Source: a virus (Duplodnaviria > Heunggongvirae > Uroviricota > Caudoviricetes). Taken from it: a stretch of 4,055 nt of DNA. The position numbers and the translations under genes are program-made. Every line of letters starts with the position of its first letter. The first letter of the stretch is position 1. Below, one piece after another: positions 2,898 to 4,055 of this stretch. A model generated the notes under the pieces. The model did no database searches and was not told the origin of the DNA. It was given only the letters and a program-made list of their open reading frames with translations. Where the stretch lies: IMG/VR virus record IMGVR_UViG_2711768006_000013, one strand, 5' to 3'.

Positions 2898-2945
2898 CGT
2901 AACCTGTCGGATCGCCGGAAAGGACCCGCAAAATGATAATAATTA
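2898..2945. other. Right-end cos flank, the expected location of cosQ (the element that terminates packaging)
   Basis: Sequence CGTAACCTGTCGGATCGCCGGAAAGGACCCGCAAAATGATAATAATTATCATC closely resembles the lambda right terminus as I recall it. The exact cosQ boundaries cannot be set without an alignment. Confidence 0.4.
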
Positions 2946-3096
2946 TCATCTACATGTCACAACGTGCATCTACGCCATCAAACCACGTCAAATAATCAAT
3001 TATGACGCAGGTATCGTATTAATTGATCTGCATCAACTTAACGTAAAAACAACTTCAGACAATACAAATCAGCGACACTGAATACAGGGCAACCTC

Positions 3097-3330
3097 ATGT
3101 CAACGAAGAACAGAACCCGCAGAACAACAACCCGCAACATCCGCTTTCCTAACCAAATGATTGAACAAATTAACATCGCTCTTGTTCAAAAAGGGTCCGG
3201 GAATTTCTCAGCCTGGGTCATTGAAGCCTGCCGCCGGAGACTGTGCTCAGAAAAAAGAGTTTCGCCTGAAGCAAACAAAGAAAAGAGTGACATTACTGAA
3301 TTGCTCAGAAAACAGGTTAGACCAGATTGA
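3097..3330 (+). CDS. ylcI: YlcI-like (DUF3950) small basic protein of 77 aa, predicted ribbon-helix-helix DNA-binding fold; prophage moron
   Basis: The ORF MSTKNRTRRTTTRNIRFPNQMIEQINIALVQKGSGNFSAWVIEACRRRL... has a basic N-terminal tail, then a short strand (RNIRFP), a helix (NQMIEQINIALVQKG), a G/S/N turn (SGNFS) and a second helix (AWVIEACRRRL), which is the ribbon-helix-helix pattern. The N-terminal 50 or so residues match my recollection of E. coli DLP12 YlcI; the C-terminus differs. It is transcribed away from cos and opposite to the terminase genes. A weak Shine-Dalgarno (AGGG) sits about 8 nt upstream of the ATG. Confidence 0.7.
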   Translation: MSTKNRTRRTTTRNIRFPNQMIEQINIALVQKGSGNFSAWVIEACRRRLCSEKRVSPEANKEKSDITELLRKQVRPD

Positions 3331-3387
3331 AGCAATTTAGATAATCGTGCAGACTACGCCCCCTCATATCACATGGAAGGTACTACA

Positions 3388-3798
3388 ATGGCTCAGGTTG
3401 CCATTTTTAAACAAATATTCGATAAAGTGCGAAATAATTTAAACTATCACTGGTTTTATTCTGAACTAAAACGTCACAATGTCTCACATTACATTTACTA
3501 TTTAGCCACAGAGAATATTCATCTTGTTCTTGAAAACGATAATACGGTTTTAATAAAAGGACAGGGTAAGGTTGTAAATGTAAGATTTTCAAAAAATAAA
3601 TGCCTTATAGAAGCCACCTTAAAAGGATTCAAATCAGGAGAGTTATCATTTTACGAATACAGGAAAAATCTTGCTACAGCAGGGGTTTTCAGATGGATTA
3701 CAAATATCCACGAAAACAAAAGGTATTACTATACCTTTGATAATTCATTACTCTTTACTGAGAACATACAGAACACTACACAAATATTTCCGCACTAA
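3388..3798 (+). CDS. ybcV: YbcV-like (DUF1398 family) protein of 136 aa, function unknown; AT-rich prophage moron
   Basis: Intact ORF with a strong Shine-Dalgarno (GGAAGG at 3375..3380) 7 nt upstream of the ATG at 3388. The ORF track starts at 3373 (MEGTTMAQ...), but that ATG has no ribosome-binding site, so 3388 is the likelier start. The size (136 aa) and the position next to a ylcI-like gene fit DLP12 YbcV as I recall it. GC content is about one third, against roughly 55% in the terminase genes. No hydrophobic signal peptide or transmembrane segment is apparent. Confidence 0.6.
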
Positions 3799-3808
3799 AT
3801 CATAACGT

Positions 3809-3833
3809 CCGGTTTCTTCCGTGCCAGAACCGG
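3809..3833 (+). terminator. Stem-loop (CCGGTTTCT / loop / AGAACCGG) about 10 nt downstream of the ybcV-like stop; possible terminator or RNA-stability hairpin
   Basis: An inverted repeat with an 8-9 bp GC-containing stem and an 8-nt loop is visible directly after the TAA at 3796..3798. There is no U-tract after it on either strand, so an intrinsic terminator is not secure. Confidence 0.25.
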
Positions 3834-4055
3834 ACTCGCTGGCATGATGAAATATGTGTACCCGGTAACCCCGGTGTGCATCGTTTTTGATTATTCCCGC
3901 ACACTCGCGCAGAAGGAGTTCCCCGTCGGGCTACGGTCTCTGTTAATACGGGAATACGGCGACGATTGGATTTGCCCCTATATTTCCAGACATCTGTTAT
4001 CACTTAACCCATTACAAGCCCGCTGCCGCAGATATTCCCGTGGCGAGCGATAACC

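Follow-up and report, generated by a model that had tools for sequence, protein, structure and literature searches.

A 4,055-nucleotide stretch of caudoviral DNA (IMG/VR record IMGVR_UViG_2711768006_000013), which we refer to as the window, covers the packaging end of a lambda-like prophage. Beside its cohesive-end site, cos, it carries two small plus-strand genes: ylcI, of the ylcI/ynfO type (positions 3097 to 3330, 77 amino acids, 44.4% GC), and ybcV, of the ybcV/ydfO type (3388 to 3798, 136 amino acids). We find it probable, at about 60%, that these are two independent accessory genes occupying a variable slot flanked by the lysis cassette and cos, with YlcI a DNA-binding regulator and ybcV an optional cargo gene. 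Either gene is widespread without the other, and relatives of YlcI in satellite elements sit next to repeated DNA boxes whose sequence follows three residues of the protein. The pair is already known, as two uncharacterised lambdoid accessory genes in an ordinary moron slot. New here are the box/residue co-variation in satellites, a testable function for DUF3950, the family to which YlcI belongs, and the note of an unannotated copy in phage lambda itself.

ylcI and ybcV occur independently of each other

The arrangement found in the window is common in Escherichia coli. When we counted matches in 5426 complete E. coli genomes, the cos-ylcI-ybcV stretch was matched in 5211, with 2632 records covering at least 80% of it, and in thousands of E. 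coli genomes RefSeq lists both genes with boundaries identical to ours. Each gene is also frequent by itself. The core of ylcI is present at 9861 places in 4184 of the 5426 genomes, and full-length ybcV/ydfO-type genes are present in approximately 3011. Most of the remaining E. coli matches to DUF1398, the family of YbcV, are ycgX, a near-universal gene that stands alone beside bluR. In the phage collection, which we searched by tblastn, YlcI was found in 152 records and YbcV in 43. We also recovered distant DUF1398 loci of Enterobacteriaceae with a subgroup alignment, from Kluyvera, Klebsiella, Pseudocitrobacter, Raoultella and Salmonella diarizonae; all 20 of 20 were solitary chromosomal genes, with neither ylcI nor terminase within 4 kb.

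What follows ylcI depends on the phage. Amino acids 1 to 50 of YlcI form an almost invariant core, and amino acids 51 to 77 are one of several unrelated C-terminal tail classes. The 77-amino-acid class accompanies an adjacent DUF1398 gene, and other tails accompany other neighbours. Three other tail classes have ylcI as a lone plus-strand gene next to Nu1 and cos; an opposite-strand PerC-like gene, a TonB_C-domain gene or small open reading frames (ORFs) come next, with the lysis genes after that. Depending on the phage, the slot that separates ylcI from the Rz/lysis genes holds ybcV, a PerC-like, TonB_C or KilA-N gene, or small ORFs. In the Shiga toxin phage 2851, the packaging module that ylcI faces is an unrelated one, HNH-TerS-TerL, and ylcI is not followed by a DUF1398 gene. 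In lambda and in DLP12, an ORF on the other strand (lambdap79/ybcW) lies between the two genes.

The insert shows the three marks of a moron: it lies between conserved modules, varies among relatives and deviates in composition. An accessory position and orientation had been proposed for it at the outset, and both were borne out by the variable slot and by the direction of the genes, which are opposed to the terminase genes. Co-inheritance as an adjacent pair, which we looked for as a sign of a toxin-antitoxin system, was not found. YbcV matched no toxin family in Pfam, NCBIfam or PADLOC; among the PADLOC defence models YlcI had no match, and YbcV matched only Csx23, at an E value of 0.023 and 12.7 bits. 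Because the genes separate freely, an obligate pair is ruled out and a toxin-antitoxin relationship is strongly argued against. The original prediction had seen in the two genes a regulator followed by an effector, a toxin-antitoxin-like unit or a superinfection-exclusion module. Given that each gene occurs without the other, that an ORF intervenes in lambda and DLP12, and that PADLOC gave no meaningful match, this prediction is not supported. YbcV is probably not a toxin neutralised by YlcI.

YlcI and its relatives in satellite elements

YlcI matches the Pfam family PF13132 (DUF3950) with an E value of 2e-20 and 72.8 bits (cut-off 25), the NCBIfam model YlcI_YnfO_N (NF041551) with an E value of 9e-09 and 35.2 bits (cut-off 30), and PHROG 949 with an E value of 6e-33. 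The YlcI-like family name first given to the gene agrees with these matches. Lambda-type phages share 93-100% identity over the DNA between cosN and approximately codon 50 of ylcI, with a synonymous divergence (dS) of 0.06-0.08. Phage 2851 offers a more distant comparison. There the homology is limited to codons 1 to 47 and begins exactly at the ATG. Of the differences, 16-18 are synonymous and 6-7 non-synonymous, which gives a dS of 0.75-0.95 and a ratio of non-synonymous to synonymous divergence (dN/dS) of 0.06-0.09. A second DUF3950 subfamily, of about 67 amino acids and 33-43% identical to the window YlcI, is spread over Enterobacterales, and in an alignment R16, F17, P18, N36, F37, S38, W40 and C45 are invariant across both subfamilies. 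ylcI is a real protein gene under purifying selection. Point "mutations" in ylcI that appear in two resequencing papers were set aside, since they look like cross-mapping between paralogues.

In the second subfamily, the ylcI-like gene is a lone, opposite-strand gene within P4-like elements as well as phage-inducible chromosomal islands (PICIs). It is convergent with alpA/antA and divergent from an operon of small ORFs that leads to primase (replication) genes where the sampled flank extends so far, and to capsid genes where the flank reaches them. The ylcI-like gene and the divergent operon have in common a control region of approximately 110-230 bp, and this region holds three, sometimes four, boxes of 10-12 bp with the form GTGT/TGTG-N-ACAC/CACA, located from about -130 to -20 relative to the ylcI-like start (loci L034, L037, L039-L044 and L045-L111 of our set). 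Boxes 1 and 2 are 22-25 bp apart, mostly 23-25 bp, and box 3 is near the start codon.

The core of the boxes varies with the three residues, 12 to 14, that precede the invariant I-R-F-P in this satellite subfamily. Proteins with the triplet Y-K-G, from Dickeya, Serratia, Xenorhabdus and others, go with the box TGTTTAAACA; K-K-N and K-K-Y go with TGTGCGCACA, T-K-K with GTGGCC(G/A)CAC, Q-K-K with GTACCCCCAC, and V-K-N and M-K-N with TGT(G/A)(T/C)ATACA. We compared the sharing of box types pairwise in 38 non-redundant satellite loci that each had three boxes or more. Where the triplet was the same, the two loci of a pair shared the box type in 99 of 111 cases (89%), against 51 of 592 pairs with different triplets (8.6%), and none of 2000 label permutations matched this difference. 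Within the band of 60-80% protein identity, the box type was shared by 39 of 44 pairs with the same triplet and by 14 of 209 with different triplets. The first divergent ORF was considered as the box binder in satellites and rejected; that ORF is unrelated among loci with the same box. Because box cores co-vary with residues 12-14, the case that DUF3950 proteins are sequence-specific DNA binders, with their specificity in the N-terminal segment, is indirect but strong.

A conserved GTCAA follows box 2 in the satellites. On the other strand it reads TTGAC, plausibly the -35 element of the divergent promoter. Boxes 1 and 2 would flank the -10 region, and binding there would repress the divergent operon. 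The whole arrangement looks like an undescribed repressor-operator switch. One satellite with a DUF3950 gene, from Dickeya (L038, 5826-7224), encodes KwaA/KwaB of the Kiwa defence system between alpA and the integrase gene.

In the window, codons 12 to 18 of ylcI (T-R-N-I-R-F-P; 3130-3150, plus strand) make up the predicted recognition strand, with R16, F17 and P18 invariant and residues 12-14 in the place of those that co-vary with the boxes. The fold of YlcI is probably ribbon-helix-helix, on evidence that is suggestive. A single-chain AlphaFold2 model, with a predicted local distance difference test score (pLDDT) of 84-86 in the core, has an extended N-terminus and helices at residues 19-32 and 34-52, and N-terminal specificity residues are consistent with the mode of action of ribbon-helix-helix proteins. 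Foldseek gave no significant match to this model, and profile searches of YlcI against PDB sequences gave no ribbon-helix-helix match. Among the ribbon-helix-helix families in Pfam, searched with 32 DUF3950 members at E values up to 10, the only match was one to HicB_lk_antitox, with an E value of 0.046. In hhalign comparisons with Arc, Mnt and CopG, the probability was at most 5%; the register, which is not significant, places N-I-R-F-P of YlcI on the N-L-R-W-P strand of Arc. Profile searches assigned both proteins to families, DUF3950 and DUF1398, with no significant ribbon-helix-helix match for YlcI. Of the original prediction that YlcI is a ribbon-helix-helix DNA binder, the DNA binding gains strong, if indirect, support from the co-variation of the boxes, and the fold is left with no significant match.

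The window YlcI has the triplet T-R-N. By analogy with the satellites, we consider as a candidate operator the inverted repeat ATCAATTATGACG / CGTATTAATTGAT at 2995-3027 (no strand), found in a repeat search. Its TCAATTA cores, at 2996-3002 and 3020-3026, are the sole two copies in the window and are 24 bp apart, a distance equal to the spacing of boxes 1 and 2 in the satellites. In addition, CACGTCAA, which comes after box 2 in satellites, is found at 2984-2991, where the other strand reads TTGACG. ACGT-centred motifs are located at -135, -112 and -56 of ylcI, and two of them are co-linear with motifs in the non-homologous upstream region of phage 2851. The operator cannot be footprinted by conservation, as identity is 93-100% throughout the cos-ylcI block. 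A consensus scan found no consensus promoter upstream of ylcI; the region has 4 promoter-like sites against 3.1 expected, which is not above chance.

ybcV, its control region and published data

ybcV has a GC content of 31.4% (GC3, the content at third codon positions, is 0.31), against 52.7% for Nu1 and 54.2% for the terminase large subunit. Its product matches PF07166 (DUF1398) with an E value of 3.3e-43 and 147 bits (cut-off 22), and the solved structure of YdfO, a K-12 paralogue (2HH8, by nuclear magnetic resonance), with an E value of 1.4e-69 over residues 1-140. An alternative in-frame ATG at 3373 would give a protein of 141 amino acids. The spacer between ylcI and ybcV is 57 nt (3331-3387), and by direct reading it includes a ribosome-binding site, GGAAGG, at 3375-3380 on the plus strand, 7 nt ahead of the ybcV ATG at 3388. 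The first description of the gene, as a 136-amino-acid member of a YbcV-like family with a GC content far below that of the rest of the window, 57 bp from ylcI and with its own ribosome-binding site, was correct in each of these points.

The last codons of ylcI contain a PdhR-type palindrome, AACAGGT-TAG-ACCAGAT (AACAGGTTAGACCAGAT; 3311-3327, plus strand). It is an exact match, with 0 expected from 200 shuffles, and its flanks are identical to the reported PdhR box of Qin ynfO/ydfO (PMC7660256). The palindrome overlaps the -35 element of a promoter-like site for ybcV, TAGACC-16-GATAAT (3318-3345, plus strand; 9/12 in the consensus scan), and lends some support to that site, which is weak alone. 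Published data point in the same direction of host control. The mRNA of ybcV and ybcW is approximately 10-fold lower in a pdhR mutant (PMC7660256), and both genes go up more than 1000-fold when T4 MotB perturbs H-NS silencing (PMC7827196). ydfO is induced 116-fold by ionic liquid (PMC4077768), and induction of ybcV is reported alongside bglH/bglF in a sabinene-tolerant strain and, with a DNase toxin, within 5 min. These published data suggest that ybcV is a normally silenced, stress-induced gene, not a constitutively lysogen-expressed effector.

We found no signal peptide or membrane segment in YbcV. The conserved residues of DUF1398 (Y35, T41, N43, A96, G99, W103 and Y114) are mostly aromatic or structural, with no catalytic motif among them. 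Our guess, at low confidence, is that YbcV modulates a host stress pathway by binding protein, without enzymatic activity. The family is tiny, with 189 cluster representatives at E values up to 0.001 among 1.84 billion; it has a solved structure, three paralogues in K-12 (ybcV, ydfO and ycgX) and no assigned function. DUF1398 proteins have been labelled "head protein" (RefSeq and PHROG 413, including lambdap78) and "putative envelope protein" (older records). Nothing in the sequence supports either label, and both look like annotation carry-over.

Proposed roles of the two genes and alternative readings

If the two genes are independent, ylcI would be the fixed element of the region, part of a conserved block made of cosN, cosQ and codons 1-50 of ylcI that is found in lambda and most lambda-type phages. 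YlcI would be a small, sequence-specific regulator and most likely a ribbon-helix-helix dimer; an N-terminal strand with I-R-F-P at its end would read the DNA. As its satellite relatives suggest by analogy, YlcI would bind repeated boxes upstream of its own gene, and from there it may autoregulate, repress a divergent promoter, or do both. ybcV would be an AT-rich, horizontally acquired DUF1398 cargo gene encoding a cytoplasmic protein with the YdfO fold. Besides its own ribosome-binding site, it would probably have its own host-controlled promoter in the 3′ end of ylcI, with the PdhR-type box and H-NS-type silencing, and it would be quiet in normal growth and induced by stress. We infer repression as the mode of action of YlcI, and the same applies to every statement about the function of YbcV.

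Several observations weigh against this proposal. The box/residue co-variation was seen in the satellite subfamily, 33-43% identical to the window YlcI, and not in the lambda type. At least two copies of TCAATTA occur in 28 of 200 shuffles, and the co-linearity of the ACGT motifs with phage 2851 was matched in 149 of 2000; both are within chance, and no repeats beyond the shuffled level were found in 2927-3096. Different downstream genes come with different YlcI tails, which a mosaic junction explains, and a cognate antitoxin tail would look alike. No terminator was found between ylcI and ybcV. The ylcI transcript could read into ybcV, so autoregulation by YlcI could modulate ybcV in cis. Finally, the statements on ybcV expression rest on published data, none of them from this prophage type, and the structure model of YbcV, made from a shallow alignment, has a pLDDT of 44.5 and is unusable for fold comparison.

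One alternative ties YlcI to DNA packaging. The protein would act in the interval between cosQ and ylcI, or on a leftward promoter to cos and the terminase genes, and modulate cos cleavage, packaging termination or unscheduled expression of terminase in the lysogen. We keep this possibility because ylcI is divergent from the packaging operon in the window and in phage 2851, as in satellites; it always faces away from a packaging or replication-packaging operon, be it Nu1-gpA, HNH-TerS-TerL in 2851 or the primase operon of the satellites. The non-coding DNA from cosN to the ylcI start (2898-3096, about 200 bp) is 93-100% identical across lambda-type phages, even when the cosB/Nu1 side is unrelated. 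This DNA has a leftward promoter-like site, GTGACA-16-TATCAT (2960-2933; 10/12 in the consensus scan), directed to cos and Nu1, and it includes the copy of CACGTCAA known from satellite box 2. However, no lambda-type boxes rise above chance, promoter-like sites are no more numerous than expected, and ylcI of phage 2851 adjoins HNH, with the presumed cos a few hundred bp away and a non-homologous region upstream. Moreover, minimal cos fragments of lambda package without ylcI, and the region is listed as non-essential. A role in packaging is, in our judgement, unlikely.

It is less likely again that ylcI and ybcV form one lysogen-expressed module, in which YlcI would act on the effector encoded downstream, controlling it as a DNA-binding regulator or neutralising it as an antitoxin, and the effector would serve exclusion, toxin-antitoxin-like growth control or host modulation. 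The genes are on the same strand with only the 57-nt spacer and no terminator between them, their adjacency is common in E. coli, as the 2632 records with most of the stretch indicate, and the 77-amino-acid tail class goes with an adjacent DUF1398 gene. Set against this are the wide occurrence of either gene without the other, the ORF between them in lambda and DLP12 and the lack of a meaningful PADLOC match. The solitary DUF1398 genes, near-universal ycgX among them, speak against a toxin that needs an antidote. Overexpression of YdfO is cited as increasing resistance to oxidative stress, which is protective and not toxic (PMC4077768). The lambda homologue of ybcV, lambdap78, is non-essential by CRISPR interference, and its knock-down had no lytic phenotype (PMC10695390).

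We regard as improbable, more so than the module, that YbcV is the important part, a stress-protective, anti-defence or defence effector to which ylcI is irrelevant. The induction by ionic liquid, sabinene and a DNase toxin and the protection cited for overexpressed YdfO would fit such an effector, as would its retention in about 3000 E. coli genomes next to the near-universal paralogue ycgX. The position of ybcV would fit as well, at the end of the lambda genome that enters the cell first. But YbcV matches no defence model, its conserved residues show no catalytic motif, its fold could not be compared from a model with a pLDDT of 44.5, and the gene is non-essential in lambda; all the evidence for an effector is at the transcript level or a second-hand citation. 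Last, the notion that ylcI is no gene and that its conservation is a DNA-level constraint from neighbouring cos signals, for which one could point to the near identity and few synonymous changes of the block from cosN to codon 50 in lambda-type phages and to the lack of annotation in the lambda RefSeq record, is effectively refuted by phage 2851, where the coding core alone is conserved, from the ATG and with mostly synonymous differences, and by the satellite subfamily, which has no lambda-type cos beside the gene and has the same invariant residues.

Organization of the window

On the left, the window carries the terminase genes on the minus strand. The gene for the large subunit, gpA, is at 305-2188, and a run of 221 Ns at 1224-1444 hides part of it. 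The Nu1 gene for the small subunit is at 2163-2708 (PF07471 Phage_Nu1, E value 2.4e-101), and relatives annotate its counterpart as terminase small subunit or nohD. Nu1 and ylcI are divergent and 388 bp apart across cos. The 12-nt cohesive-end core of cosN is at 2886-2897 (no strand), where it was sited by the conserved flanks ATAAATAGCGAAAACCCGCG and CGTAACC. On the minus strand this core is GGGCGGAAGGCG, compared with GGGCGGCGACCT in lambda, and the two differ in 6 of 12 positions. A prophage of E. coli strain 582 (L001) also has the variant core. Five other lambda-type loci carry the canonical core, and one of these (L004) has a Nu1 that is 99% identical to that of the window.

Direct reading located a cosQ-like heptamer, GGGTCCT, at 2921-2927 on the minus strand, inside the block conserved at 93-100% across lambda-type phages; from what is known of lambda, we take it to be cosQ. 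The conservation of 2898-3096 exceeds what cosQ alone would account for. Just beyond cosQ, at 2933-2949, there is a perfect 17-bp palindrome, ATGATAATAATTATCAT, which includes the -10-like TATCAT of the leftward promoter-like site.

On the right, 3800-4055 has only degenerate remnants resembling Rz/Rz1 spanins (PHROG 6954, Rz-like, E value 1.7e-11, minus strand), and no intact lysis gene was found there. ylcI and ybcV were expected to lie between cos and the position of the lysis genes and to be directed away from the terminase operon. They are indeed found between cos and the lysis-gene remnants, as plus-strand genes opposed to the minus-strand Nu1 and gpA. Close relatives part from the window sequence at about 3966, and one of them carries an IS3 insertion nearby. 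Directly 3′ of the ybcV stop, between the convergent transcription units, is a hairpin, GTCCGGTT...AACCGGAC, at 3807-3835 (no strand). The RNA of 3791-3850 folds with -15.2 kcal/mol, and the hairpin, which has no T-run, is a putative terminator.

Comparison with known systems

The right end of lambda (NC_001416) resembles the window closely. DNA identity is 95% from cos through codon 54 of ylcI, and homologues of YbcV and YlcI have the same position and orientation as bor. The DUF1398 gene is lambdap78 (complement 47042-47575; L002, 2543-3076), 76% identical to YbcV by tblastn. The YlcI ORF is intact, encodes 64 amino acids at complement(48109..48303) (L002, 3610-3804), 199 bp from the right end, and is unannotated in RefSeq. 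In contrast to the window, YlcI of lambda has the 64-amino-acid tail class, approximately 700 bp including lambdap79 lie between the genes, and the cohesive end is canonical. The same families are found in K-12, as ynfO-ydfO beside nohA in Qin and as ylcI-ybcW-ybcV beside nohD in DLP12, next to a Nu1-type gene and in the same orientation as in the window. With its directly adjacent genes and 77-amino-acid YlcI tail, the window has the Qin-type arrangement. Its YbcV shares approximately 76-78% identity with YdfO and with the versions of lambda and DLP12, while the phages PhiR49_1, Kati and ev099 carry identical copies of it.

Some public records appear out of place. Many ENA contigs of about 3.5 kb carry frameshifted copies of YlcI and YbcV, there are "YlcI" entries under Staphylococcus aureus, Bacillus and spider, and the record "Campylobacter phage CJLB-4" has lambda-type ybcV and ylcI at lambda-level identity. 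These look like lambda right-end control DNA that contaminates public assemblies.

Among characterized regulators, the Arc and Mnt ribbon-helix-helix repressors of phage P22 are the nearest in kind to YlcI. They are small, with an N-terminal segment and then two helices, and N-L-R-W-P of Arc and N-F-R-M-P of Mnt align with N-I-R-F-P of YlcI. As in DUF3950, the specificity residues of Arc and Mnt are in the N-terminal segment, and repeated boxes lie in a divergent control region. The differences are that there is no significant sequence, profile or fold match between them and YlcI, and that the DUF3950 boxes of satellites are GTGT...ACAC palindromes of 10-12 bp about 22-25 bp apart, unlike the Arc operator.

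The bor and lom morons of lambda, like ylcI-ybcV, lie between late-region modules and against late transcription; ybcV also has a GC content that deviates from its neighbours, a promoter-like site upstream and a hairpin downstream. Bor and Lom, however, are proteins of the envelope whose expression in lysogens and whose phenotypes are known, whereas YbcV has neither a signal peptide nor a membrane segment, and the published data on ybcV indicate silencing, not constitutive expression (PMC7827196).

The satellite DUF3950 gene also resembles the genes for the Stl-type master repressors of Staphylococcus aureus pathogenicity islands (SaPIs): each is a lone, opposed regulator gene that faces a replication/packaging operon across an operator-rich region. 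This likeness would be consistent with a repressor role for the satellite protein. The two have no homology, and activation by AlpA is what has been described for P4-like elements and Gram-negative PICIs.

Implications for lambdoid phages and satellites

A wider reading, which we put forward tentatively and hold to be possible but doubtful, is that DUF3950 proteins are tiny operator-specific repressors of Enterobacterales mobile elements and form a family that had gone unrecognised. In satellites such a protein would be the switch that holds the replication-packaging operon off, and in lambda-type phages it would control a cos-proximal promoter or site and thereby link the state of the prophage with the packaging end. 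If this is true, ybcV is merely one cargo under the transcription unit of YlcI. On comparative grounds, the toxin-antitoxin or exclusion-module reading of the pair can be dropped. It is now reasonable to regard DUF3950, present in most E. coli and often in multiple copies, as a sequence-specific DNA-binding regulator, and the predicted recognition residues 12-14, together with the operator boxes, make its function directly testable. Lambda, the best-studied phage, has an unannotated and strongly constrained 64-amino-acid ORF, whose satellite relatives sit at the position expected of a master repressor.

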